From the NCBI RefSeq assembly GCF_054482525.1, contig NZ_CM137006.1: a DNA stretch of 64,000 bases; one strand, given 5' to 3'. Positions 4,918-64,000 of this stretch are shown here, piece after piece. Position 1 is the first letter of the stretch. Each line of letters opens with the position of its first letter. Made by a program: the position numbers and the translations under genes. The notes under the pieces are model-generated. The model was not told the origin of the DNA. It saw only the letters and a program-made list of their open reading frames with translations, and ran no database searches.

Positions 4918-5050
<133 letters not shown>

Positions 5051-5062
5051 CCAGGCGAAATA

Positions 5063-5527
5063 ATGAATTATCATCAGTACTATCCTGTCGACATCGTCAA
5101 CGGCCCCGGCACTCGCTGCACCCTGTTTGTCTCCGGGTGTGTTCATGAATGCCCCGGTTGCTATAACAAAAGCACCTGGCGGGTAAATTCCGGTCAGCCA
5201 TTTACCAAAGCAATGGAAGACCAGATCATTAACGATCTGAATGACACTCGCATCAAACGCCAGGGGATTTCCCTCTCCGGCGGCGATCCGCTGCATCCGC
5301 AAAACGTGCCGGATATTCTGAAACTGGTACAACGCATCCGCGCCGAATGTCCGGGTAAAGACATTTGGGTGTGGACAGGCTATAAACTCGACGAACTCAA
5401 CGCTGCGCAAATGCAGGTTGTTGATTTGATTAACGTACTGGTCGACGGCAAATTTGTGCAGGATTTAAAAGACCCTTCCCTGATCTGGCGCGGCAGCAGC
5501 AATCAGGTGGTGCATCATTTGCGTTAG
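5063..5527 (+). CDS. nrdG: anaerobic ribonucleotide reductase activating protein (radical SAM)
   Basis: 154 aa; CVHECPGC radical-SAM cysteine motif near N-terminus. Confidence 0.95.
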   Translation: MNYHQYYPVDIVNGPGTRCTLFVSGCVHECPGCYNKSTWRVNSGQPFTKAMEDQIINDLNDTRIKRQGISLSGGDPLHPQNVPDILKLVQRIRAECPGKDIWVWTGYKLDELNAAQMQVVDLINVLVDGKFVQDLKDPSLIWRGSSNQVVHHLR

Positions 5528-5818
5528 TCACTCATCCAGCCGTTTAGTCGCGTCTTCATAAACGGCTGAGTTCTCTCTCTTACCAATAGCTATCACCAAC
5601 ACGAGCAACTCTTTATCGTTAACCTGATAAACCAGGCGATATCCCTGTGTGCGCAGCTTAATTTTGTAGCAGTCCGGTAAATCCCGCAGTTTAGCCGATG
5701 GATTGCGCGGCCTTTTCAGCACATCCTCAAGCTTTTTTTTAAATTGTTCCCGGACTGTCACGCCCAGTTTTTGCCACTCTTTCAGCGCCCGCGGATCAAA
5801 CGCCAGCTCATAGTTCAT
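5528..5818 (-). CDS. RelE/ParE-family type II toxin (mRNA interferase-like)
   Basis: About 97 aa from ATG at 5816-5818 (ORF-track frame extends further upstream); RelE-like sequence; start overlaps stop of upstream antitoxin gene. Confidence 0.72.
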   Translation of the reverse strand: MNYELAFDPRALKEWQKLGVTVREQFKKKLEDVLKRPRNPSAKLRDLPDCYKIKLRTQGYRLVYQVNDKELLVLVIAIGKRENSAVYEDATKRLDE

Positions 5819-6050
5819 CCAGTCGGACCTTAATGGCCTCTTGTGGGTTGGCCAGTCGTTCCCTGACAGTGCGTAACAAGGCTTCTTCACTATCACTGAC
5901 AGTGAGCGTTTTTACCGGCATTCGTCCATTTTCCGCAACGTACTGAAACAGCAGTCGCACTGCTTCAGTAGGCGTGATATTTAATTTTTCCAGCACCGCA
6001 TAAGCCTCATTTTTCAGTTTGTCATCCAGGCGGACGTTAAGTGTGGCCAT
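5808..6050 (-). CDS. RelB/DinJ-family antitoxin
   Basis: 80 aa; N-terminal MATLNVRLDDKLK resembles ribbon-helix-helix antitoxins; GGAGG Shine-Dalgarno 5 bp upstream; 11-bp overlap with toxin gene. Confidence 0.7.
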   Translation of the reverse strand: MATLNVRLDDKLKNEAYAVLEKLNITPTEAVRLLFQYVAENGRMPVKTLTVSDSEEALLRTVRERLANPQEAIKVRLDEL

Positions 6051-6074
6051 TATGCCTCCGGTAATTATGAAAAG

Positions 6075-6110
6075 TGTAATGCATTATAGCATTACATATG
6101 CATTACATTC
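6075..6110. promoter_or_regulatory. putative toxin-antitoxin operator: palindrome TAATGCATTA plus three GCATTA(C) repeats
   Basis: Read directly from sequence 25-60 bp upstream of antitoxin start codon. Confidence 0.4.
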
Positions 6111-6241
6111 ATTTCTGGAAAACGCCTCGCAAAAATGAGGACGACACGCAGGAATATGCCGTGGTGAAGATAGATATTGCGGTGATTTTACGAAGGGAGA
6201 AGAAAGCGTTGGGCGGTAACGTTTCACCGCCCAATAAGGAA

Positions 6242-6631
<390 letters not shown>

Positions 6632-6810
6632 TCACTTCCTTTTTTATTTACACTTCATCCTTCACACTGCCTCATCGACGGCTACGCTCATTCGCCCGAG
6701 TCACGTACTGCGAGTACGCTCCCCGGCCCTCATTCACTTTCCGTCTCGATGCAGTGCGAATGATTTTGTGTAATTTTTTAGTTTATAGCGCGGCAGGTCG
6801 CGCCAGTTTT

Positions 6811-8163
6811 TTACTGCCCGGCGATTTTCATCTCCGGCAACAGCACAGAACCACACTGTATATTACTGCGTGTTTCAATATCGTTACCGACGGTGACAAT
6901 ATTGCGCCACATATCTTTTAAATTACCTGCGATGGTGATTTCACTAACCGGATACTGAATTTCGCCATTCTCTACCCAGAAGCCCGCTGCACCACGGGAA
7001 TAATCACCGGTAATGGCACTCACGCCCTGGCCCATCAGCTCCGTCACCACCAGCCCGGTACCCATCTCTTTGAGCATTTGTTCGAAGCTTAGCCCTTGTC
7101 CGGCAATCCGCCAGTTGTGAATACCGCCTGCGTGTCCAGTGCTTTTCAGCCCCAGTTTCCGCGCCGAGTAGCTGGTCAGCAGCCACTGAGTCAGAATGCC
7201 ATCTTTAATAATATCGCGACGCTCGGTGCGCACACCTTCGCTGTCGAATGGCGTAGAGGCCAGCCCTTTCAGCAGATGCGGATGCTCTTCAATGGTCAGC
7301 CAGTCCGGCAGAATTTGTTTACCCAGCGAATCCAGCAGGAAGGTAGATTTACGGTAAACCGATCCACCCGCTATCGCCCCCACCAGATGCCCAAAAAGCC
7401 CGGTTGCCACTTCATTGGCAAAAATGACCGGCGCTTTCATGGTGGAGAGTTTACGCGGTGACAGGCGCGATAAAGTACGGCGAGCACAGTCGGCCCCAAC
7501 CCACTCTGGCGTTTGCAGATCGCTCATCGCACGACCAATGGTGTAGGCGTAATCACGCTCCATATCGCCATTTTCTTCAGCAATTACACAGCTGGAGAGC
7601 GAATGACGCGTAGAGCAGTAACCCTGCAACATGCCGTGGCTGTTGCCGAAAACTTTGACACCGTAGTGGCTGTTAAAGCTGCCGCCTTCGGTATTGGTGA
7701 TGCGTTTGTCCGCCTGCAATGCCGCCTGTTCTGCGCGGGCCGCCAGTTCAATGGCTTCATCCGGGGAAACTTCCGCAGGGTGGAACAAGTCGAGATCCGG
7801 TGCGTCAAAGGCCAGCAGCTCTTTGTCTGCCACGCCGGCACAGGGATCTGGCGAGGTATAACGGGCAATATCCAGTGCCGCCTGTACGGTGCGGGCAATG
7901 GCCTGCGGGCTTAAATCGGTAGACGATGCGCTACCTTTGCGGTTCTGGTGATAAACAGTGATCCCCAACGCGCCATCGCTATTGAATTCAACATTCTCCA
8001 CTTCACCATAACGCGTGCTTACGCTAATGCCGGTGGTCTTGCTGACGGCAACTTCCGCACCGTCCGATTTGCCTGAGGCCAACTCCAGCGCAGTGGAAAC
8101 TGCTTCTTCCAGAATCTTGCGCTGCGCTTCAACTTGAGAGATTACTTTCATTGCAAGTGCCAT
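6811..8163 (-). CDS. pmbA: metalloprotease PmbA/TldE
   Basis: 450 aa; recognised PmbA sequence. Confidence 0.95.
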
Positions 8164-8256
8164 AATGTAGAGAGTTTCTCTGAAGTCTAACAGAGAACCG
8201 TTTTTCAGTGCGCATCTTAACTGGTAACATTAGCCTCTTTTTTTAAGGAGCCTGAG

Positions 8257-8808
8257 ATGACTAAGCAGCCCGAAGACTGGCTCGACGACGTTCCCGGTGA
8301 TGACATCGAAGACGAAGGCGATGAAATTATCTGGGTCAGTAAAAGTGAAATTAAACGCGATGCCGAAGAGCTAAAACGCCTTGGCGCGGAAATTGTTGAT
8401 CTGGGGAAAAACGCGCTGGATAAGATCCCGTTAGATGCGGATCTGCGCGCGGCTATTGAGCTCGCCCAGCGTATTAAGATGGAAGGTCGCCGCCGCCAGT
8501 TGCAGCTCATCGGTAAGATGCTGCGCCAGCGCGATGTTGAACCGATCCGTCAGGCGCTGGATAAGCTGAAAAACCGTCACAACCAGCAGGTGGTACTGTT
8601 CCATAAACTGGAAAACCTGCGCGATCGTCTGATCGACCAGGGTGATGACGCCATCGCTGAAGTATTAAATCTGTGGCCCGATGCCGATCGTCAGCAACTG
8701 CGAACTCTGATCCGCAACGCGAAGAAAGAGAAAGAAGGGAATAAGCCGCCGAAATCCGCACGCCAGATTTTCCAGTATCTGCGCGAGTTAGCGGAGAACG
8801 AAGGGTAA
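8257..8808 (+). CDS. yjgA: ribosome-associated protein YjgA (DUF615)
   Basis: 183 aa; acidic N-terminus and conserved position divergent from pmbA. Confidence 0.9.
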
Positions 8809-8835
8809 TTTTCGTTGTTGATGTGAGTATGGTTT

Positions 8836-9630
<795 letters not shown>

Positions 9631-9734
9631 ATCAGCATACTTGTCCTTAGCCTTCTGCAGTGACAGCTGGTAGTACAGCGTGCTTCTGGCCAGCCCTGCA
9701 GCCTTTAACAGGTCAGACTGGCAGTGTCCGCACC

Positions 9735-10265
9735 TCAGGCTCCGGATGACTTTCGTTTTTTCTCCAGCTCCTGGCGCTTTTTTTCCAGGAGATGCTCCTG
9801 CATGGCTTTCAGATATGCATTTTCTGCGCGAAGATAACGCAGCTCATTCTTCATCTCTTCCGGCGTCATGTTTGCCTCGTTTTCATGGGTATCATCAGAA
9901 CGGGTCATGCTTTTCTCCTTCCTGCGCCTGATAAAGGCCTCATTACCAGATTTGCGGTAGCCTTTTATCCAGTTTTTAACCGTGTTGTGGCTGGGAATGT
10001 TAAACCGGGCAGCTACCCGGGGTAGAGACTCAGAATGCCCGAGAGCATAAAGAACCACGCAAAGTTTATCTTCAGGAGAATAGCTACGCTTGTGTCTGCA
10101 ATCCAGTGCCCGAGGACCGTGAAGAAGAAAAAGATTAATCCAGTGTGAGAGGCTGGTGTGAGAAAGTTGAAAGAGTTTTGCCGTAGAAATGATGCCTGCA
10201 TGACCAGCCAGGTAGTGATTTACAGCGGCAAGTTTTACTTCAAATGAATGTTTCATAAACTGCAC
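9735..10265 (-). CDS. IS3-family transposase OrfA (HTH plus leucine zipper)
   Basis: 176 aa; helix-turn-helix N-terminus and C-terminal heptad-repeat region. Confidence 0.8.
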   Translation of the reverse strand: MQFMKHSFEVKLAAVNHYLAGHAGIISTAKLFQLSHTSLSHWINLFLLHGPRALDCRHKRSYSPEDKLCVVLYALGHSESLPRVAARFNIPSHNTVKNWIKGYRKSGNEAFIRRRKEKSMTRSDDTHENEANMTPEEMKNELRYLRAENAYLKAMQEHLLEKKRQELEKKRKSSGA

Positions 10266-10307
10266 CTTCAGATGTCAGATTATGTCCAACATTTGGGGTG
10301 CAGTTCA

Positions 10308-10380
10308 TCAAGCGTCGCATCAGGCACTATGCTCAAATGCCGGATGCGGCGTAAACGCTTTATCCGGCATACACACACAT
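10308..10380. repeat. REP palindromic unit right half plus adjacent REP
   Basis: agcgtcgcatcaggc ... gccggatgcggcgtaaacgc. Confidence 0.6.
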
Positions 10381-10394
10381 GCAAGGCTTCAGAA

Positions 10395-11768
10395 TTACTG
10401 CGCGGCTTCCGCTTTCTTCGCCAGTCCATCCAGCAGTTTCTGATGGATCCCACCAAAACCGCCATTGCTCATCACCAGAATATGGTCGCCAGGCTGAGCG
10501 GTTTTCACCACCATATCTGCCAGCGTATCCACATCGCCGCTCCAGTGTGCAGGCTGAACGCAGGCTTCTGCCACTTCTGCCACCTGCCACGGAATATGCG
10601 CCGGTTGCAGCAGGAAGACTTCATCGGCACGACCTAATGAAGGTGCCAGATCGTCTTTGCAGATCCCCATTTTCATGGTATTCGAGCGCGGTTCCAGCAC
10701 AGCAATAATGCGCGCCGTACCACCAACTTTGCCACGCAGCGCCGCCAGCGTTGCCAGAATCGCCGTCGGGTGATGGGCAAAATCGTCATATACCGTGACG
10801 CCATTCGCTTCACCACGCAACTCCAGACGGCGACGAGCATTAATAAACGAACCCAGCGCGTTAGCGGCATCTGCCGGCGCTACACCAACATGGCGAGCCG
10901 CCGCAATCGCCATCAGGCCATTGTGCATATTATGTTCGCCTACCAGCGACCATTTCACTTCACCCACTTTTTCGCCATCCAGCAAGACTTCCCATTCAGA
11001 AGCGTCAGTGGTCAGCTTTTTCGCCTGCCAGTGACCTTGCTCGCCCACCAGCTCCTGCTCGCTCCAACAGCCCATCGCCATGGTCTGTTTCAGGTTGATG
11101 TCGTTTTCCGGCCAGATAATACGGCCCTGCCCCGGAACGATACGCACCAGATGGTGGAACTGTTTCTGGATCGCTTTCAGGTCGTCAAAGATATCGGCGT
11201 GATCGAACTCAAGGTTGTTGAGGATCAGCGTACGCGGGCAGTAATGGACAAATTTAGAGCGTTTGTCGAAGAAGGCGCAGTCGTACTCATCCGCTTCGAT
11301 AACAAAGAAGTCGCTTTCGCCCAGACGCGCCGAGACCTCAAAGTTCCCCGGCACACCGCCGATCACAAATCCTGGTTTGTAACCGCACTGTTCCAGAATC
11401 CAGGTCGCCATTCCCGCTGTAGTCGTTTTACCGTGTGTACCGGCGACGGCCAGCACCCAACGGTCACGCAGCACAAAATCGTGCAGCCACTGCGGACCTG
11501 ACATATAAGGGATGTTTTTTTCCAGTACCGCTTCCACACACGGATTTCCACGGGTCATGGCGTTGCCAATAATCACCAGATCCGGCTGCGGTTCGAGCTG
11601 GCTGGCATCGTAACCCTGAATCAGTTCAATGCCTTGCTTCTCAAGTAAGGTGCTCATCGGCGGATACACATTGGCGTCCGAACCCGTTACTTCATGGCCT
11701 AACTGGCGCGCCAGCATCGCCAGACCGCCCATAAACGTGCCACAAATTCCTAAAATATGAATGCGCAT
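10395..11768 (-). CDS. mpl: UDP-N-acetylmuramate:L-alanyl-gamma-D-glutamyl-meso-diaminopimelate ligase
   Basis: 457 aa; Mur ligase fold sequence recognised as Mpl. Confidence 0.95.
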
Positions 11769-19653: not shown

Positions 19654-25205
<5,552 letters not shown>

Positions 25206-38799: not shown

Positions 38800-39438
38800 A
38801 TGCCCGGGCGCTTTGAACTAAAACCAACCCTGGAGAAAGTCTGGCACGCGCCGGACAATTTTCGCTTCATGGACCCGCTGCCGCCGATGCATCGTCGGGG
38901 GATCATTATTGCCGCCATTGTATTGGTGGTCGGATTTCTGCTTCCATCTGATGATACGCCCAACGCGCCGGTGGTGACGCGTGAAGCGCAGTTAGATATT
39001 CAGTCGCAATCACAACCGCCGACAGAAGAACAGCTGCGGGCGCAATTAGTCACACCACAAAATGATCCTGATCAGGTGGCTCCGGTCGCTCCAGAACCTA
39101 TACAGGAAGGCCAGCCAGAAGAGCAGCCGCAAACCACCCAAACGCAACCATTCCAGCCAGATAGCGGAATTGATAATCAATGGCGCTCCTATCGTGTCGA
39201 ACCCGGTAAAACGATGGCGCAGCTGTTCCGCGACCACGGACTGCCCGCTACCGATGTCTATGCAATGGCGCAGGTTGAAGGCGCGGGTAAGCCGCTGAGT
39301 AATTTGCAAAACGGGCAGATGGTGAAAATCCGCCAGAACGCCAGCGGCGTGGTGACGGGCTTAACCATTGATACGGGGAATAATCAACAGGTCTTGTTTA
39401 CCCGCCAGCCGGATGGCAGTTTTATTCGTGCGCGGTAG
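38800..39438 (+). CDS. ytfB: OapA-domain cell-division protein with Pro/Gln-rich linker
   Basis: 212 aa from ATG at 38800. Confidence 0.85.
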
Positions 39439-39538
39439 ATGAAGGGTCAACCAAAAGCCAGCTAAGGAGCGTCTCTTTGATGACCTTACGTCTGGCTTCC
39501 AGTGCCTGGGGGGAAACCATACTGATATGTTGACATCC

Positions 39539-39558
39539 TCCACGCCCTGAAGGACGTG
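39539..39558. repeat. sub-terminal hairpin CCACGCCCTGAAGGACGTGG (TnpB-proximal end)
   Basis: Perfect hairpin read from sequence; matches the hairpin at the other end except two stem bases. Confidence 0.55.
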
Positions 39559-39572
39559 GATCCCTGCTACGT

Positions 39573-40781
39573 TCAGGCTGTCGCCTGAATCATTTCGGTG
39601 GGTTCCTGCTTCAACGAGCGGCCTGACTGCACCATCTCTCCACAGGCAAGAACGGCGTGTCCCGCCGCTAAAATGTTACGAGCGCCGTTTACATCGGCGT
39701 TCGCTGTATATCCACATACCTGGCATCTGAATTTACTTTGTGACAGGCGATTTTCTTTCGCTGTATGACCACAGCACGCGCAACGCTGGCTTGTGTACGC
39801 TGGCGGAACAGCAAGCACCTGACCGCCACTCCAGAGCTGCTTGTACTCAAGCTGGCGGCGCATTTCATACCAGCCCTGATCCAGTATCGAACGGTTTAAA
39901 CCTGATTTTGCCCGGACATTGCGCCCCGGCTGGCTGACCGTACCCGCTGCTGACTTTGACATGTTGCTGACCTTCAAATCCTCAATGACTATCATTGCGT
40001 GGTTTTTGCTGACGGTCGTTGTGACTTTGTGAAGGTAGTCCCTGCGGATATTTGCGATACAGGAATGCAGTCGCTGTATTTTGCGTTTCTGCTTCTGCCA
40101 GTTGTTGCTGAATTTGACCTTGCGGCTTAACTGTCGCTGAAGTCTCGCCAGCGTCTTCTGGTTTTTCTGAAAACTGTTTACAGGCTCAAAGACTGTGCCA
40201 TCTGACAGCGTGGCGAGTTTAGCCACGCCAGCATCCAGCCCGACCATTGATGCTGAAGGGTGAACCGGAGTTGATACTTCACTTTCTGTCTGAATACTGA
40301 TGTACCACTTACCGCAGGACTGGCTGACCGTGACATTTTTCACAACACCCGTGACCTGACGGCTATTCCGGTAGCGCATCCAGCCCAGTTTCGGCAGAAA
40401 AATACGGCTGTTTTCCTGATCGAGCTTAACGCCCTGCGGGTAGCGGAATGCATCATTCTGTCCCCGCTTTTTGAATCGGGGAAAAGCAGCCCGCTTCTGG
40501 AAGAAGTTTTTGTAAGCCCGCTCAAGGTCTTTCAGTGATTGTTGCAATGGCTGTGAGGGCGAATCTTTAAGCCATTGCGTTTCAGTGGCGTTTTTCCACT
40601 CAACCAGCCAGGAAGCCATTTTCCCGTAAGGGATGTATTTATTACCGGCCTTATGATTCTCATTCTGAAGCGCCAGAGCACGATTGAAAACGAAACGACA
40701 TGCGCCTGCGAAGCGCCTCATTTCACACTCCTGTTGACCACCTGGTCTTAACTGGAATTTAAATGCCTGTAATCGTTTCAC
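39573..40781 (-). CDS. tnpB: TnpB (IS200/IS605 OrfB; RuvC-like RNA-guided nuclease family)
   Basis: 402 aa; GLDAGV (RuvC-I Asp), VIEDL (RuvC-II Glu), CxxC...CxxC zinc finger, DVNGARNI (RuvC-III Asp). Confidence 0.85.
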
Positions 40782-40788
40782 AGGTCAA

Positions 40789-41262
40789 ATGATACTTTGG
40801 TCTGTGAAAAAAGAAACCGATATCCGACGGGGAAGGCATTGTGTTTTCCTGATGCATGTTCACCTGGTCTTTGTCACCAGATACCGACGTCAGATTTTTG
40901 ACTATGACGCGACAGAAAAACTACGCACTTACTTTTCAAATGTATGTGCTGATTTTGAAGCTGAACTGGTTGAAATGGATGGCGAACCAGATCACGTCCA
41001 TTTGTTAATTAACTATCCTCCCAAACTGGCGATATCCAGTCTGGTAAACAGCCTCAAAGGCGTATCGGGTAGGTGACTGCGACGAGATCGACCAGATATT
41101 GCAGTCAGGTATTACTACAAAGGCGTTTTGTGGAGTCCTGGCTATTTTGCCAGTAGCTGCGGAGGTGCGCCAATATCCGTCATCCGCCAATACATTGAAC
41201 AACAGCAAACACCTGGTCAGGTGGAAAACCGCGCCTTATATCCCCGCCCTGAAGGACGGGGT
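40789..41262 (+). pseudogene. tnpA: IS200-type TnpA (Y1 HuH transposase) interrupted by in-frame TGA at 41074-41076
   Basis: 95-aa N-terminal part with HuH-like HVHLL motif; same frame continues after TGA with the conserved LWSPGYF C-terminal motif, then reads through the terminal hairpin. Confidence 0.7.
41242..41261. repeat. sub-terminal hairpin CCCCGCCCTGAAGGACGGGG (TnpA-proximal end)
   Basis: Perfect hairpin read from sequence. Confidence 0.55.
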
Positions 41263-41280
41263 TTTACGGCGCACTGGATA

Positions 41281-41670
41281 AACCAGGCCAAGCGTATGCT
41301 GGTTGATCAAATAATATCCCCCAAGCGCAGCAATATTAATATTCACCTGCAATGGGTCGCTATCTGCCTTAAAAATATTGTGTTTCTTCCCTTCATCCAA
41401 TAATTCCATTAAATGCAAGTGCGCATGATTAATTTCTAAGAGACGCTGTGATTTTGCATAATGCACACCTTTACTTTGGTTTTCACTATGCACAATTTTT
41501 AAAAACCTGGGATTAGCAATATAATAACCCCAGGTAAAATCGATGATTTTTTCAATGGATTTTTGTGGCTGGTTAACCTGCTGATTAACGAACGCACCGA
41601 TACCGACAGCGTAGAATAATTACATACCGCACAACAAGAATGTATGGTGTAAGGCGTTGTCAGTCATCTC
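41281..41670 (-). pseudogene. ytfA: regulator-like remnant at the ytfA position; frame broken by TAA after a 15-codon N-terminal ORF
   Basis: Open frame continues into the IS end; short MTDNALHHTFLLCGM ORF then stop then about 130 in-frame codons; family not assigned. Confidence 0.35.
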
Positions 41671-47887: not shown

Positions 47888-49342
<1,455 letters not shown>

Positions 49343-49639
49343 TCACTCTAATTTTCAAAAGTAATCACAACAAGATTATTTATGATTAAATGTGACGCGA
49401 CCCGCAAATAATTCCGCATGGATAGAGTGGGATTCACACAACGAAATAATTATTCATTTAAATTCATTTAGTTAATTGAATTACACATTCCATTAAATCT
49501 TTCCACACTCAAAATCAACAACAACTTCCCTGGCAAAAAGTCAAAAAATGGTCATTGCCTTCCTGAAAAAATAGTGTCAGGATTAATCAAAACCAATCAC
49601 ATATTGATTCGAATTGAACTATCATGAAGGTAAATGGCG
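49343..49639. promoter_or_regulatory. divergent ulaG / ulaABCDEF control region
   Basis: AT-rich 297-bp spacer between divergent operons; known site of UlaR, CRP and IHF control; individual sites not resolved here. Confidence 0.5.
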
Positions 49640-59132: not shown

Positions 59133-59211
59133 ATATTATTCCATATAAATTAAGTTTAAATATTAATAAAATGAATATTTGCAGTACGTAATTATCTTAC
59201 CAGCTAAACAC

Positions 59212-59239
59212 AAAAAAAAAACCATCCAAATCTGGATGG
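59212..59239 (-). terminator. rho-independent terminator (minus strand) downstream of dehydratase gene
   Basis: ccatcca/tggatgg stem with 4-nt loop followed on minus strand by T10. Confidence 0.6.
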
Positions 59240-59323
59240 CTATTTAGAAGAACCAAAAATTTAACGCTATGCATACGATAAAAAATGCGCCAGTCTACAT
59301 ACGCTGACGCTAATGATTAGTCA

Positions 59324-60925
59324 CTACAAGTCTAACGACCGCTTCCACAACATAAAGTCAAACTGTTCAAGTTTGTCTGCCTTCACGACGTAGTCCTTAC
59401 TGGCAGTTTCAATAACTTTTTCAAATAATTCTCTACTCACATCTTCCAGCGGAGTGCCGTCAATCACTGGGCCACAGTCGAAATCAATCATGTCAGACAA
59501 TCGTCTGGCAATCGTGCTGTTGGTGGATATTTTTAACACCGGAACAATCGGGTTACCGGTGGGCGTACCAAGACCCGTCGAGAAGATAACCACATTACAT
59601 CCTGCTGCTACCAATCCGGTTACCGCGTCCACGTCATTGCCCGGAGTACACACCAACGATAATCCACTATCGGGCATCGGTTCAGCGTAATCGCATACAC
59701 TCACAATTGGCGCTCGCCCGCCTTTTTTCGCTGCTCCGGTAGATTTTATTGCGTCAGTAATCAACCCATCCGCAATGTTGCCAAAACTTGGGTTATCCGC
59801 AATGGTGGTATCGAAAAAGTTCGCTGTCTTTTCGTAGCCTTGCATTAGATTGAGGAACTTTTTTTTATCCTCAAGATTAATACAACGCTTAACCATATCA
59901 CCTTCTGCCCCACATAATTCTGGAAATTCTGCTAACCCGGAAGCGCCACCAAGCGTTGTCAACCAGTCAGAAACCAGCCCCATTGCAGGGTTGCCGGAGA
60001 TACCAGAAAAACCATCGGAACCACCACACTTCATCCCCACTTTGAGACAGGAAAGAGGGACCTCTACTCTTTCTGTCGGCTTCACCGCTTTCATTGCCTC
60101 GAAAGTCTGCTGTAAAGCGGTCTGCATCATCCGCTCTTCGCTGTCCCACTCCTGTTGGAGAAAGTAGAGCGCAGGTTTATCAAATTCAGGATTACGTCTC
60201 GCCAGCGCATCCTTAAACATTTTCTGCTGCGCTTTTTCACATCCTAAACTGAATACCGTCATACCGATTACATTCGGATGGTCAGCATAAGCAGCTAATA
60301 CATCGCACATAGTTTCACAGTCTGAAGTTGCACCACCACAACCACTGGTGACCGTAATACAGCGAACACCTTCAATATGCGGGAACATTCTCGCGGTTTC
60401 GATCAGTTCATCGCTACCGGACGTCAGATTAAGAGCAAACTTTTTCAGTGAGTTATTGGTATAACCCAAAGCATCATTCAAAGCATTGGTTAACTTACTG
60501 ACATTACGGTTCTCGCAAAATACCAATGGAAAGACTAACCAGTAACTGGCAGTACCCACTCTGCCATCGTCACGGACATAACCTTTAAAAGTGCGGGTGC
60601 TCCATTCAGAGACATCCGGTGCCTGCCAGTGGTAGGGTTCAACATCCTCCAGTGTGACAGGAGCTGCATAGTGGCGAATATTATCAACGGTAATCGCTTC
60701 TCCCTTAACGATGGGACGCGTGGCCTTGCCAACTGGCGTACCGTACATCGAAACAATGCCATCCAGAGGAATATCTTGCGTCGCAAACTTATGTTTAGCC
60801 TTAACATCAGTTACTAACGTTATGTTGTCGTCATCCCACGAGTACGATTCTCCAGCGTGCAGGTCTTTCAACGCGACAATGAGATTATCGTTACTGTCGA
60901 TACGTAATATTTTTTGCATAATCAT
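59324..60925 (-). CDS. UxaA/GarD-family sugar-acid dehydratase (altronate / galactarate dehydratase-like)
   Basis: 533 aa; N-terminus resembles UxaA (MQYIKIHALDNVAVAL-type SAF region); Cys-rich central region; length between UxaA and GarD. Confidence 0.75.
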   Translation of the reverse strand: MIMQKILRIDSNDNLIVALKDLHAGESYSWDDDNITLVTDVKAKHKFATQDIPLDGIVSMYGTPVGKATRPIVKGEAITVDNIRHYAAPVTLEDVEPYHWQAPDVSEWSTRTFKGYVRDDGRVGTASYWLVFPLVFCENRNVSKLTNALNDALGYTNNSLKKFALNLTSGSDELIETARMFPHIEGVRCITVTSGCGGATSDCETMCDVLAAYADHPNVIGMTVFSLGCEKAQQKMFKDALARRNPEFDKPALYFLQQEWDSEERMMQTALQQTFEAMKAVKPTERVEVPLSCLKVGMKCGGSDGFSGISGNPAMGLVSDWLTTLGGASGLAEFPELCGAEGDMVKRCINLEDKKKFLNLMQGYEKTANFFDTTIADNPSFGNIADGLITDAIKSTGAAKKGGRAPIVSVCDYAEPMPDSGLSLVCTPGNDVDAVTGLVAAGCNVVIFSTGLGTPTGNPIVPVLKISTNSTIARRLSDMIDFDCGPVIDGTPLEDVSRELFEKVIETASKDYVVKADKLEQFDFMLWKRSLDL

Positions 60926-60952
60926 ATTCTTCCAGTCAGATGTTCAATCTTA

Positions 60953-62254
60953 TTAACTGTATGCTTTTGCTGCCTGTTGGCTCTTTTGCAGCAATCCAAT
61001 CAATAATGCGCAGCCGATAGTAATTACAGACAACGCCATCAATCCGGCGATGCTGCTATCCATTGCCCGATCAACCTCAACACGGATAAGAGGAGCAAGG
61101 AACGAGCAGAAAGCGCCCATCGTGGTGCAAAAACCGATCCCCGCAGCCAGTGCCGGACCAGTAAGAAGTTGTGGAGGGAAAGTCCAGAATATTGGCTGTA
61201 CTGAGAGGAAACCAACCGCACTTAAACAAAGTGCACCAATCGCCACAACAGGCCCCGCAAATGCGGAAAGGGCAAGGCCGACAGCAGCAGCCAACATACA
61301 CATAACCGAAATGGCCACACGCCGGGAAGGATTGCGGTCAGCAATTCGCGGAATGTAATAGACGCCAAAAGCAGAGCACGCCCATGGTATTGCCGCGACT
61401 AATGACTGCTTAAAGCCAAGGCTTTCTCCCATCAGCGATGCAACCTGTGACGGAAGGAAAAACATTAAACCATATACTGATATCTGGATGGTGCCGTAGA
61501 TTAATGCCAGATGCCAAACTTTGGCATTTTTCAATGCTGAAATCACTGAACTGGTTTCTGTTTTCTGTCGTTCAGATTCCAGTTGCTTATTCAAAGCGTC
61601 TTTTTCTTCCTGGGTAAGAAATCGCGCTTTCGTCGGATTATCATCAAGGTAGAACCAGGCAAAGATACCAAGCACTAATGCCGGCAATCCCTCAATGACA
61701 AACATCCAGAACCATCCTGGACGTCCCATCCAGCCATGTAGTTCAAGTAAAGCTCCCGATATTGGCGAACCGAGCGTTAACGCCAGCGGCACCCCCAACA
61801 CAAATATTCCCACGACCGATCCGCGAACCTTGTTAGGAAAATAAATGGATGCGAGCAGTAAAATGCCGGGATAGAACCCCGCCTCGCCCAGCCCTAACAG
61901 AAAGCGCAAAATAATAAATTGCGTTTCACTGGTGACAAATCCCGTCATTGCCGAGAGAAGGCCCCAAATTGCAGTTGTAATACTTAACCACTTTTGTGCG
62001 CCGATTTTATTGAGGATCAGGTTAGCTGGAATGCCGAAAAGTGCATAGGCAGCGAAAAATATTCCTGCACCGAGAGCGAATGCCGACTCTGATAATCCAA
62101 TATCCAGTTTCATTGCATCTTTGGCAAAGCCAACATTTACCCGATCAATAAAGGCAACAAAATACATTATGAACATTAAGGGTACTAAACGTTTCCACGA
62201 TTTTTGAATTGCGGAATTCAACAGCGGATTATCGTATTGGGTTATATTAGCCAT
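60953..62254 (-). CDS. ACS-family MFS transporter (hexuronate/aldarate transporter-like)
   Basis: 433 aa; N-terminal FIDRVNVGFA motif typical of ExuT/GudP/GarP-type transporters. Confidence 0.75.
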   Translation of the reverse strand: MANITQYDNPLLNSAIQKSWKRLVPLMFIMYFVAFIDRVNVGFAKDAMKLDIGLSESAFALGAGIFFAAYALFGIPANLILNKIGAQKWLSITTAIWGLLSAMTGFVTSETQFIILRFLLGLGEAGFYPGILLLASIYFPNKVRGSVVGIFVLGVPLALTLGSPISGALLELHGWMGRPGWFWMFVIEGLPALVLGIFAWFYLDDNPTKARFLTQEEKDALNKQLESERQKTETSSVISALKNAKVWHLALIYGTIQISVYGLMFFLPSQVASLMGESLGFKQSLVAAIPWACSAFGVYYIPRIADRNPSRRVAISVMCMLAAAVGLALSAFAGPVVAIGALCLSAVGFLSVQPIFWTFPPQLLTGPALAAGIGFCTTMGAFCSFLAPLIRVEVDRAMDSSIAGLMALSVITIGCALLIGLLQKSQQAAKAYS

Positions 62255-62304
62255 AAATAAATCCTTAGTTCTGTTGGTAAGATATTCTATTTATAGGTTT
62301 TATA

Positions 62305-63198
62305 TTATTTATAATAATCGGTGACAGATAAAATTTCCTGCAATCTCCGGGATTGAATATCATCAAGTATATTAAATGGTGAAGAACACCGTTCTGATTG
62401 AATAACCCCCTTTAACTGAAGGGCTTTTTTGAAAGTGGGAATAAAAGGAGAATTCACGCTGTAAACGGCCATTAGTTGATCGACTATCTGCTGATGCTGC
62501 GCGACTGCAAGTAAATCGTCATTCATGAATGCTTGCATCCAGGAGGCAAAAAATTCAGGGACAATATTGGATAAACCACCAATACAGCCATCTCCACCAG
62601 ATAGTATGTTGTGGGCAAAATTATTGTCATATCCTGCATACACTTCAAAATGAGGGATATTTTTCTTTACGGTATTGATAACCTGCGCAGTATGGAAAGC
62701 ATCAGGGACGGTATCTTTCATACCAATAATATTGGGATACTTATCTGCCAGTCGTAAACAAATCTCTGGTGATACGCTGTACCCGGTTCTCTCCGGGAAG
62801 TTATAAATAAAAATATGAGCCGGGGTTTGGCTTGCAATCGTACTGTAGAAATCAAAAATAGCTTCATCATCCAGAGGGAAATAATAAGGACTGATGATCA
62901 TCACACCATCCAATCCTTGCTCCCAGGCGTAATTGGCCAGTGATATTGATTCATTGACGTCCATGCGACTGGCTCCGGCATAAGCCTTCATATCGCCTCG
63001 GGAAAACTCACTACAGGTTTTAATCATTTGGCGGGCGTTTTCCATATTAAGCGAAAAAAACTCACCAGTACTGCCCATCACAACAAACCCGGACACGTGA
63101 TTTTTAATAAAATCATAAACCTGAGTGTTTTGCTCTGGATCGATTCGCCCTTGTTCATCAAATATGGTGACAACGGGGGTTATGTAACGACTTTTCAT
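62305..63198 (-). CDS. DapA/NAL-family Schiff-base lyase (candidate 2-keto-3-deoxy sugar-acid aldolase or 5-dehydro-4-deoxyglucarate dehydratase)
   Basis: 297 aa; GSTGE motif, YNFPERTGY motif and catalytic-lysine context IGMKDT match the DHDPS/NAL family. Confidence 0.75.
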   Translation of the reverse strand: MKSRYITPVVTIFDEQGRIDPEQNTQVYDFIKNHVSGFVVMGSTGEFFSLNMENARQMIKTCSEFSRGDMKAYAGASRMDVNESISLANYAWEQGLDGVMIISPYYFPLDDEAIFDFYSTIASQTPAHIFIYNFPERTGYSVSPEICLRLADKYPNIIGMKDTVPDAFHTAQVINTVKKNIPHFEVYAGYDNNFAHNILSGGDGCIGGLSNIVPEFFASWMQAFMNDDLLAVAQHQQIVDQLMAVYSVNSPFIPTFKKALQLKGVIQSERCSSPFNILDDIQSRRLQEILSVTDYYK

Positions 63199-63526
63199 GC
63201 CTACCTCATCATAGTTTTATTGTTCATATATACAAACAACGTTTTTAAATACAAACTAAAATGAGTATACCCAACCTCAGAAATGAGTCAAATTTAGCCA
63301 ATCACAGAAGTAATACACATAAGATATTGATATATTTGGAGTAATTATGCAGGGGGCCTGCATAAAAAACAATCACAGTTCTTTTTTTATCCGTTTTATG
63401 ACCAGTATCACGCTAAAAAAGGACTGATGGGGTCAACAGCAGTCAAGGAACGCGAGGGGGTTAATTTACTTGAATTATAATTCTCCCTAGAATGGTGCAT
63501 TACTCATGGTAAGGGAAATAGTCATT

Positions 63527-64000
63527 ATGGAACATAAGCCTACCATCCGGGTGTTAGAGATACTGGAAGCACTGGCAGCGGAGAATCAGGGTGTTTCATT
63601 AACTCACCTTTCGGAAAAAACAGGCATCCTGAAAGGAACGATTTTTCCCATCCTCAAAACGCTGGTTGAACAGCGGTACATCAGTTATGACGCTAATACC
63701 CAGCTTTATAATCTGGGGATCTCCTGCTCGATTCTGTCCCGTGCTTTCCTCGACAGATCGTACTGGTTAAAAATGGTTTACAAAGAGATGAACAACATTG
63801 TCAAAGAGTGCAATGAAGTTTGTCAGATGGGGATCCTGGACGGTGCAGATGTTTTATATATCAATAAGGTGCAGGCGGCACAAACCGTACAACTGGTTTC
63901 ACATATTGGGACTCGTCTGCCTGCTATCTATTCTGCGCTGGGAAAAGCCATTATCTGTGAATACAGTGATCAACAAATTCGGCAACTCTACCCTGACGGT
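63527..64000 (+). CDS. IclR-family transcriptional regulator, N-terminal 158 codons (3' end outside window)
   Basis: ATG at 63527; N-terminal winged HTH typical of IclR regulators; divergent from the catabolic genes. Confidence 0.7.
   Translation, partial: MEHKPTIRVLEILEALAAENQGVSLTHLSEKTGILKGTIFPILKTLVEQRYISYDANTQLYNLGISCSILSRAFLDRSYWLKMVYKEMNNIVKECNEVCQMGILDGADVLYINKVQAAQTVQLVSHIGTRLPAIYSALGKAIICEYSDQQIRQLYPDG

Follow-up and report, generated by a model that had tools for sequence, protein, structure and literature searches.

A predicted tandem IclR-family operator in the divergent control region of an accessory sugar-acid operon of Escherichia coli

Results

Organization of the island

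The stretch of DNA analyzed here (the window; 64,000 nucleotides of contig NZ_CM137006.1, RefSeq assembly GCF_054482525.1) contains an island of four genes inserted between yjfI and rlmB. Three of them form an operon on the minus strand. The first (62305–63198) encodes a protein of the DHDPS/DapA family (Pfam PF00701), which has YagE as its closest solved relative, is 32% identical to both YagE and YjhH, and is probably a 2-keto-3-deoxy sugar-acid aldolase. It is followed by the genes of an MFS transporter resembling the D-galactonate transporter subfamily (60953–62254) and of a UxaA/GarD-family sugar-acid dehydratase (59324–60925), both assigned with NCBIfam and Pfam. The closest solved relative of the dehydratase is GarD; its score of 221 bits lies under the 731-bit cut-off of the galactarate dehydratase equivalog. 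The fourth gene, on the plus strand, codes for an IclR-family regulator with Pfam HTH_IclR and IclR_C domains; it starts at 63527 and is truncated by the window end (64000), the full-length gene (locus L001) measuring 780 nt and specifying 259 amino acids. An in-frame ATG is present at 63506, seven codons upstream of the annotated iclR start (63506–63526); having neither a ribosome-binding site nor conservation in other genera, it is probably not used.

Of 5426 complete E. coli genomes, 518 carry the island. In these 518 records, all of which contain the spacer between the operon and iclR, the best match is at least 99% identical to the window in 37 cases and 95–99% identical in the other 481; one of the locations is plasmid-borne, and two locations are present in at least one genome. 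A literature search by RefSeq protein accessions found no paper on the island, and a peptide-pattern scan of genome contigs for relatives of the DHDPS-family protein returned none, the patterns being over-specific. E. coli O157:H16 Res13-Lact-PEA12-26 (L015, 1878–3765) lacks yjfL, yjfK, yjfJ, yjfI, the three-gene operon and the entire spacer; what it retains is an orphan iclR, with an annotated length of 756 nt, separated by an IS1A element from a truncated remnant of yjfM. Elsewhere in the window, collinearity with strain PCN033 places an IS1397 copy next to mpl (~8908–10256), and an IS200/IS605 tnpA remnant with an intact TnpB (InsQ) gene within a TetR-family pseudogene, which they split (~39422–41568).

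The intergenic region and its counterparts in related loci

As the preliminary description had it, the operon and iclR diverge from a common spacer, which extends from 63199 to 63526 between the starts of the DHDPS-family gene (63198, minus strand) and of iclR (63527, plus strand), and which comprises 328 bp with 34.8% GC. No RefSeq feature is annotated inside the spacer in PCN033, a strain 99.98–99.99% identical to the end of the window. The same description called the spacer unusually long and AT-rich, which is not borne out by comparison with 12 more divergent spacers from the corresponding 64 kb of PCN033: these range from 88 to 354 bp (median 211 bp), four of them being 309–354 bp long, and from 35.0 to 43.6% GC (median 40%). 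The ulaG/ulaA spacer, present in the same window, measures 354 bp with 35.0% GC, and the spacers of the orthologous divergent loci measure 326–356 bp. Because the whole island is AT-rich, with 41–47% GC in its coding DNA versus 51% for the rest of the window, a 35% GC spacer corresponds to the usual drop from coding to non-coding DNA. Two other spacers of the island have a GC content lower than that upstream of iclR, namely the yjfI-to-UxaA-gene spacer (59133–59323; 28.8% GC) and the MFS-to-DHDPS-gene spacer (62255–62304; 22% GC).

Contigs carrying relatives of the regulator (48–85% identity) were taken for a comparison of loci. The divergent layout recurs in L002, L003, L006 and Providencia L004, L007 and L008, while in Yersinia L005, K. 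oxytoca L009 and the Cedecea-like L030, iclR is co-directional with the same three genes and lies upstream of them. Pectobacterium L010 (positions 5001–10489, to be compared with 59324–64000 in the window) encodes a regulator and an aldolase that are 55% and 68% identical to ours, and GntP and IlvD/EDD proteins replace the MFS transporter and the UxaA-type dehydratase; the operator described below is kept, suggesting that parts have been exchanged around a constant sensing module. In L032 (4480–5000), the operon order is MFS–UxaA–DHDPS and the spacer is 521 bp long. Finally, L031 (1–5774) contains an orphan regulator homologue (51% identity) with a single degenerate box of 15.1 bits located 345 nt upstream; it adjoins a gene for a 2094-residue protein with kinase, DUF4011 and helicase domains, a radical-SAM gene and an AAA gene, a neighborhood that resembles a defence locus. 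Note that many of the compared loci share ancestry and hence are not independent observations.

Comparison of the spacer across orthologous loci reveals five conserved blocks amid unalignable DNA, with a mean column identity of 67% over the six divergent spacers aligned. This cross-locus comparison supports the earlier proposal that the spacer holds an IclR operator and both promoters; the remainder, roughly 150 bp, is unconstrained AT-rich filler.

A tandem palindrome upstream of the aldolase gene

The preliminary description, which suggested a motif search for inverted repeats, had seen no convincing palindrome by eye. The search gave two 16-bp palindromes, 63222–63237 and 63241–63256, and the absence of a palindrome was thus an error: TGTTCATATATACAAACA (63221–63238) is nearly perfect and has a second copy 19 bp away. 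The gene-proximal box, O1 (GTTCATATATACAAAC; 63222–63237, or 63221–63238 as an 18-mer), is centered 31.5 nt upstream of the ATG of the DHDPS-family gene. The promoter-proximal box, O2 (GTTTTTAAATACAAAC; 63241–63256), also detected with a repeat finder and a position weight matrix (PWM), is centered 19 bp from O1 and 50.5 nt upstream of the same ATG, so that it starts around +2 of the predicted operon transcript. O1 has no mismatch to the degenerate pattern, and its block is invariant in the six-locus alignment and in five E. coli alleles; the box of L002 is the perfect form, GTTTGTATATACAAAC. With zero or one mismatch to the degenerate pattern, the two boxes are the only matches in the 64 kb. 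Allowing up to two mismatches yields five matches versus 0.89 expected, four of which are the two boxes read on both strands, the fifth lying at 23148–23163.

The PWM gives 22.3 bits for O1 and 20.7 bits for O2, against 13.5 bits for the next-best site of the window, and 15.9–24.3 bits for the box pairs of ten loci. As the PWM derives from these very boxes, their scores are circular; what is informative is the absence of any other site above 13.5 bits, both in the 64-kb window and in the 10-kb loci. Besides, the pair was found without any constraint on spacing, and yet the center-to-center distance is 19 bp, close to two helical turns, in all ten loci. In each of the ten, the pair lies just upstream of the DHDPS-family gene, whatever the position of iclR.

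A scan of the whole genome collection for the degenerate box pair produced 11 matches, every one of them beside an IclR-family gene. They come from Providencia (three), Yersinia frederiksenii, four metagenome-assembled genomes (Fusobacteriaceae, Deltaproteobacteria, Selenomonadales and Clostridiaceae), Neobacillus, Burkholderia and Treponema, and thus span several phyla. The IclR homologues encoded next to them are 23–80% identical to the window regulator, and most of the matches adjoin UxaA, IlvD/EDD, GntP or DHDPS genes. More specifically, the tandem pair and its 19-bp spacing are shared by loci whose IclR homologues are only 23–41% identical to ours (L020, L022, L023, L024, L025, L028 and L029, that is, the Fusobacteriaceae, Deltaproteobacteria, Selenomonadales, Clostridiaceae, Neobacillus, Burkholderia and Treponema matches).

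These features agree with what is known of the binding sites of IclR-family proteins. The group-1 consensus, GTYCRAW4TYGRAC ('NGT-12-ACN'), belongs to a motif type enriched for sugar-acid genes; tandem sites 18–22 nt apart occur in 94 orthologous groups, and site centers usually lie 20–80 nt upstream of the start codon (PMC8222616). The box pair conforms to group-1 sites in its tandem spacing, its distance to the start codon and its IclR-gene neighbor, while GTTCATATATACAAAC fits the consensus at 13 of 16 positions and the variant box of L020 and L028, GTTCGTATATACGAAC, at 14 of 16. Altogether, we predict that the two palindromes constitute an IclR operator. A comparison of recognition helices among regulators sharing this operator was uninformative, the helix being generically conserved throughout the family, including in XynR and YjhI.

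The predicted operon promoter and the position of the predicted operator

A predicted σ70 promoter of the DHDPS–MFS–UxaA operon is present on the minus strand at 63264–63291. It matches the consensus at 10 of 12 positions, with a −35 hexamer TTGACT (63291–63286), a 16-nt spacer and a −10 hexamer TATACT (63269–63264), and would direct initiation at about 63257. The heptamer GAGTCAA of the −35 region is invariant over six loci, and the distance that separates TTGACT from the boxes is kept in Yersinia, K. oxytoca, Pectobacterium and L030. Together with the iclR promoter described below, it makes up a pair of outward-facing σ70-like promoters about 240 bp apart that is conserved in orthologues. 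The resulting 5′ leader of the operon mRNA, as read from the sequence, would be about 59 nt long (63199–63257, minus strand) and would hold both operator boxes and a ribosome-binding site, GAGG (63207–63204). A structured leader or riboswitch was rejected (folding z = +0.75); an Rfam scan of the spacer with E-values up to 10 gave only two meaningless matches of ~8.6 bits each, and a terminator scan of the spacer gave none.

The position of the boxes relative to the promoter is itself conserved. In nine loci from at least five genera, the first box starts 34–36 nt past the first T of the −35 hexamer; these include loci with a co-directional iclR and one with different dehydratase and transporter families. 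The layout was also recovered in L030, a locus added after the model was built. In operon orientation, the second box ends 9–33 nt before the aldolase start codon, so the boxes must belong to the core promoter or to the beginning of the transcribed region. L032 departs from this layout: there the pair begins directly after a TTGACA-17-TACATT promoter, but the operator lies ~290 nt upstream of the annotated first gene (MFS), and the compact layout is therefore not universal. Unless its leader is long, the L032 annotation has overlooked a start or a small gene ahead of MFS.

A location at or after the core promoter predicts repression, and occlusion of the operon promoter by a repressor is well supported by the position of the predicted operator, which sits between the conserved −10 hexamer and the ribosome-binding site. 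The IclR family contains activators as well as repressors, however, and one of its members, YjhI, is reported to activate a similar aldolase/dehydratase operon (PMC13279387). The boxes might by analogy be activator sites, the operon being on in the presence of the regulator and its ligand. We regard this as quite unlikely: the boxes lie downstream of the conserved −35 and −10 hexamers, or overlap the core promoter at best, and their proximity to the start codon leaves no room for another promoter downstream; moreover, the regulator is just 24–27% identical to YjhI and XynR.

IHF-like and CRP-like blocks upstream of the operon promoter

An IHF-core-like motif, TATCAATATCTTA, occupies 63320–63332 on the minus strand, approximately −76 to −64 from the predicted operon start. 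It shows no mismatch to the core WATCAANNNNTTR, and its specified positions are invariant in the five E. coli alleles; on the plus strand, the block reads ATTGAT(T/A)A. Such a motif, with at most one mismatch, lies 40–46 nt upstream of the operon −35 hexamer in nine of the ten loci, with a per-locus chance of 1–3% for a window of 40–46 nt that was set after inspection of the data. Yersinia, the only locus without an IHF-like motif, has its CRP-like site at about −70, a canonical class-I position.

The CRP/FNR-type site, TATGA-N6-TCACG (63397–63412), matches 8 of the 10 core positions of TGTGA-N6-TCACA. Its center (63404.5) maps to approximately −148 relative to the predicted operon start, and to approximately −95 relative to that predicted for iclR. 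Across loci the block takes the form T(T/A)TGA-N6-TCACG, and it is kept in each of the six divergent ones although their flanks do not align. The site is shared by all ten loci, although matches to 8 of the 10 core positions occur at chance frequency in the window, which contains 29 CRP-like matches with up to two mismatches versus 26 expected by chance; likewise, the spacer contains two promoter-like matches versus 1.8 expected in shuffled sequence. Since promoter-like and CRP-like matches are no more frequent than chance predicts, it is entirely conservation that carries the case for the promoters and for the CRP and IHF sites.

Motif identity and conserved position suggest roles for CRP and IHF in operon expression, yet the CRP-like block may not be bound by CRP, because one of its half-sites, TTGA or ATGA, has a more FNR-like sequence. 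The block might instead serve the iclR promoter from a class-I-like position (~−95), or bind another factor, whether of the CRP/FNR family or unrelated. Indeed, the site is located between the two promoters, ~95 bp from the predicted iclR start in E. coli, the left half-site is the FNR-like TTGA in four of six loci, and −148 is an unusual location for CRP at a σ70 promoter; none of the canonical activating positions (−41.5, −61.5, −72.5, etc.) is occupied in E. coli, the Yersinia site being the only canonical one. Among the six divergent loci, however, the distance to the iclR −35 hexamer varies from 59 to 74 bp without helical phasing, whereas that to the operon −35 hexamer is steady (112–116 bp). 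Furthermore, the co-directional loci, whose iclR does not adjoin this side of the operon promoter, also have a TGTGA-type site upstream of that promoter; the distance from the site to the −35 hexamer is 106 bp in K. oxytoca and L030, 91 bp in Pectobacterium and 34 bp in Yersinia. We therefore favor a CRP-like site serving the operon, and hold service to iclR or binding of another factor to be rather improbable.

The proposed iclR promoter

The predicted iclR promoter (63465–63493, plus strand) matches 9 of 12 consensus positions and consists of a −35 hexamer TTTACT (63465–63470), a 17-nt spacer and a −10 hexamer TAGAAT (63488–63493); ATTTAC and CCTAGAAT are invariant in six loci. Transcription would start at about 63499–63501, giving a leader of ~27 nt with the ribosome-binding site AAGGGA. 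An autoregulatory operator was sought with the PWM near this promoter and rejected, no site of 9 bits or more being present there in any locus. Autoregulation through the box motif is improbable given an iclR promoter without operator, and iclR seems to be expressed from a separate, unregulated promoter.

Allelic variation and the unconstrained part of the spacer

Five E. coli alleles differ at 20 positions within 63150–63580, all of which fall in the spacer. Twelve belong to a variable filler (63312–63375) that is unalignable in other genera; elsewhere, one affects the 3-nt linker between the boxes and one the unspecified N4 of the IHF-like core, and none of the 20 touches a specified position of any conserved block.

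The filler includes a hairpin (63345–63365) and the first ten codons (63347–63375) of a 26-codon open reading frame (63347–63427). In the window allele, alone among the five aligned, the hairpin has a perfect 9-bp stem and a 3-nt loop (TTATGCAGG GGG CCTGCATAA). The spacer center could in principle encode a 26-residue peptide, the ATG of the frame being preceded at 5 nt by a ribosome-binding site (GGAG), or a small structured RNA built around the perfect stem. Both products are highly improbable. The ORF start is ACG in ECONIH6, and in the majority of E. coli alleles the first ten codons carry the substitutions Q2S, G3E, A4T and H10R and not a single synonymous change. The hairpin arms are broken in four of the five alleles, the frame is lost in L002, the segment cannot be aligned with other genera, and it has neither an Rfam match nor a terminator. 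The open reading frame was accordingly rejected on allele variation and lack of cross-genus conservation, and the hairpin, as a functional element, on its broken arms and the same lack of conservation.

The extent of unconstrained DNA, about half of the spacer, bears on another explanation of its length and AT content, namely horizontally acquired DNA under H-NS silencing, in which only the promoters and the operator would be functional. The presence of the island in ~10% of E. coli genomes is in line with this idea, as is its AT-richness throughout, with flanking spacers of 22–29% GC. Nevertheless, silencing leaves unexplained the conserved positions of the IHF-like and CRP-like motifs across lineages with diverged flanks. 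We consider it possible, if on the unlikely side, and it is compatible with the regulatory model presented below rather than exclusive of it.

Discussion

The spacer is an ordinary two-promoter control region of an accessory E. coli sugar-acid operon, with nothing exotic about it. Comparison of the loci makes it likely that it comprises a divergent pair of σ70 promoters, a repressor operator on the operon side only and a CRP/IHF module farther upstream. In the mechanism that we propose, an IclR tetramer (a dimer of dimers) would bind both palindromes on one helix face, from about +2 to +36, and would thereby block the binding or the escape of RNA polymerase. XynR and YjhI have 2-keto-3-deoxy-xylonate as their effector (PMC13279387); by analogy, the repressor would be released by a pathway intermediate, likeliest the 2-keto-3-deoxy sugar acid formed by the UxaA-type dehydratase. 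Such a ligand would explain how one regulator–operator–aldolase module goes along with two unrelated dehydratase families. The IHF-like site (~−70) and the CRP-like site (~−148) would add catabolite control, IHF bending bringing the distant CRP site towards the operon promoter, while iclR would be transcribed from its own conserved promoter, devoid of operator.

A more speculative reading, which we put forward tentatively and think less likely than not to hold, is that a regulator–operator–aldolase cassette has moved between phyla, from Enterobacterales to Clostridia, Fusobacteria, Spirochaetes and Burkholderia, its tandem GTTYRTATATAYRAAC operator near-unchanged. The dehydratase and the transporter would have been swapped en route (UxaA and MFS versus IlvD/EDD and GntP), and Enterobacterales would have added the remote CRP/IHF module. 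If so, cassette swapping would imply that the sensed ligand is the shared 2-keto-3-deoxy intermediate, and the Enterobacterales module, in which an IHF bend (~−70) would carry CRP from its remote site (~−148) to the promoter, would be an unusual one. The control region is textbook-style, and these results leave the general understanding of gene regulation unchanged. They do provide a concrete and testable map of operator and promoters for an uncharacterized sugar-acid island that occurs in roughly 10% of E. coli genomes as well as in Providencia, Yersinia and Klebsiella. Such a map could aid the discovery of the substrate and the inducer, or the construction of biosensors; related xylonate-type systems influence the growth of Salmonella in the gut.

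Several described systems resemble the one reported here. The ulaG/ulaABCDEF region of the same window (49286–49639) is likewise a 354-bp divergent spacer with 35% GC in a sugar-acid pathway, and its control by the UlaR repressor, CRP and IHF, shown experimentally, is reported in a preprint that cites Campos et al. (2004); a repressor combined with CRP and IHF is thus ordinary for E. coli sugar-acid operons. However, the ula repressor belongs to the DeoR family and the window regulator to the IclR family, and the roles of CRP and IHF are experimental in the former case and predicted in the latter.

SL1344_3500 of Salmonella Typhimurium, an analogue of the present regulator, is described as an IclR-like repressor of a neighboring accessory aldolase/dehydratase/MFS operon, which has a patchy distribution among Enterobacteriaceae (PMC12445098). 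No operator is described for it in that study, and it differs from the present system in its site (glgP–glpD), its IlvD-type dehydratase and its substrate, xylonate (PMC12445098).

At the level of DNA, the boxes are akin to the group-1 tandem operators of Suvorova and Gelfand (2021; PMC8222616), with an even palindrome, 13–14 matches out of 16, centers 19 nt apart and sugar-acid targets, but the consensus has A/T at positions 6/11 where the window boxes have T/A. The covered part of the supplement of that study contains neither GTTTGTATATACAAAC nor TATATACAAAC, nor the names Providencia and Yersinia.

Of the systems described, XynR (YagI) with yagEF comes closest. In the XynR/yagA-yagEF system of E. 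coli K-12, as is predicted for the island, an IclR-family protein regulates the genes of a DHDPS-family 2-keto-3-deoxy sugar-acid aldolase, of a dehydratase and of a transporter; XynR is a repressor with a single target beside its own gene (PMC5934670, PMC13279387). Orthology of the window regulator with XynR or YjhI was nonetheless rejected (24–27% identity). XynR itself is 27% identical to the window regulator, and the aldolases are 32% identical. The dehydratase is of the IlvD/EDD type in the yag system and of the UxaA type in the window, and xynR is not divergent from yagE, unlike iclR and its operon. The yagE box, GTTCTATAATGTAGAAC, is an odd 17-mer, whereas the window boxes are even 16-mers. 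Given the low protein identity and the different box sequence, XynR/yagEF is an analogue of our system and not an orthologue. Even so, two palindromes, read from the K-12 sequence alone and representing a candidate XynR site, are centered 33 and 54 nt upstream of the yagE ATG, compared to 31.5 and 50.5 nt for the boxes of the window.
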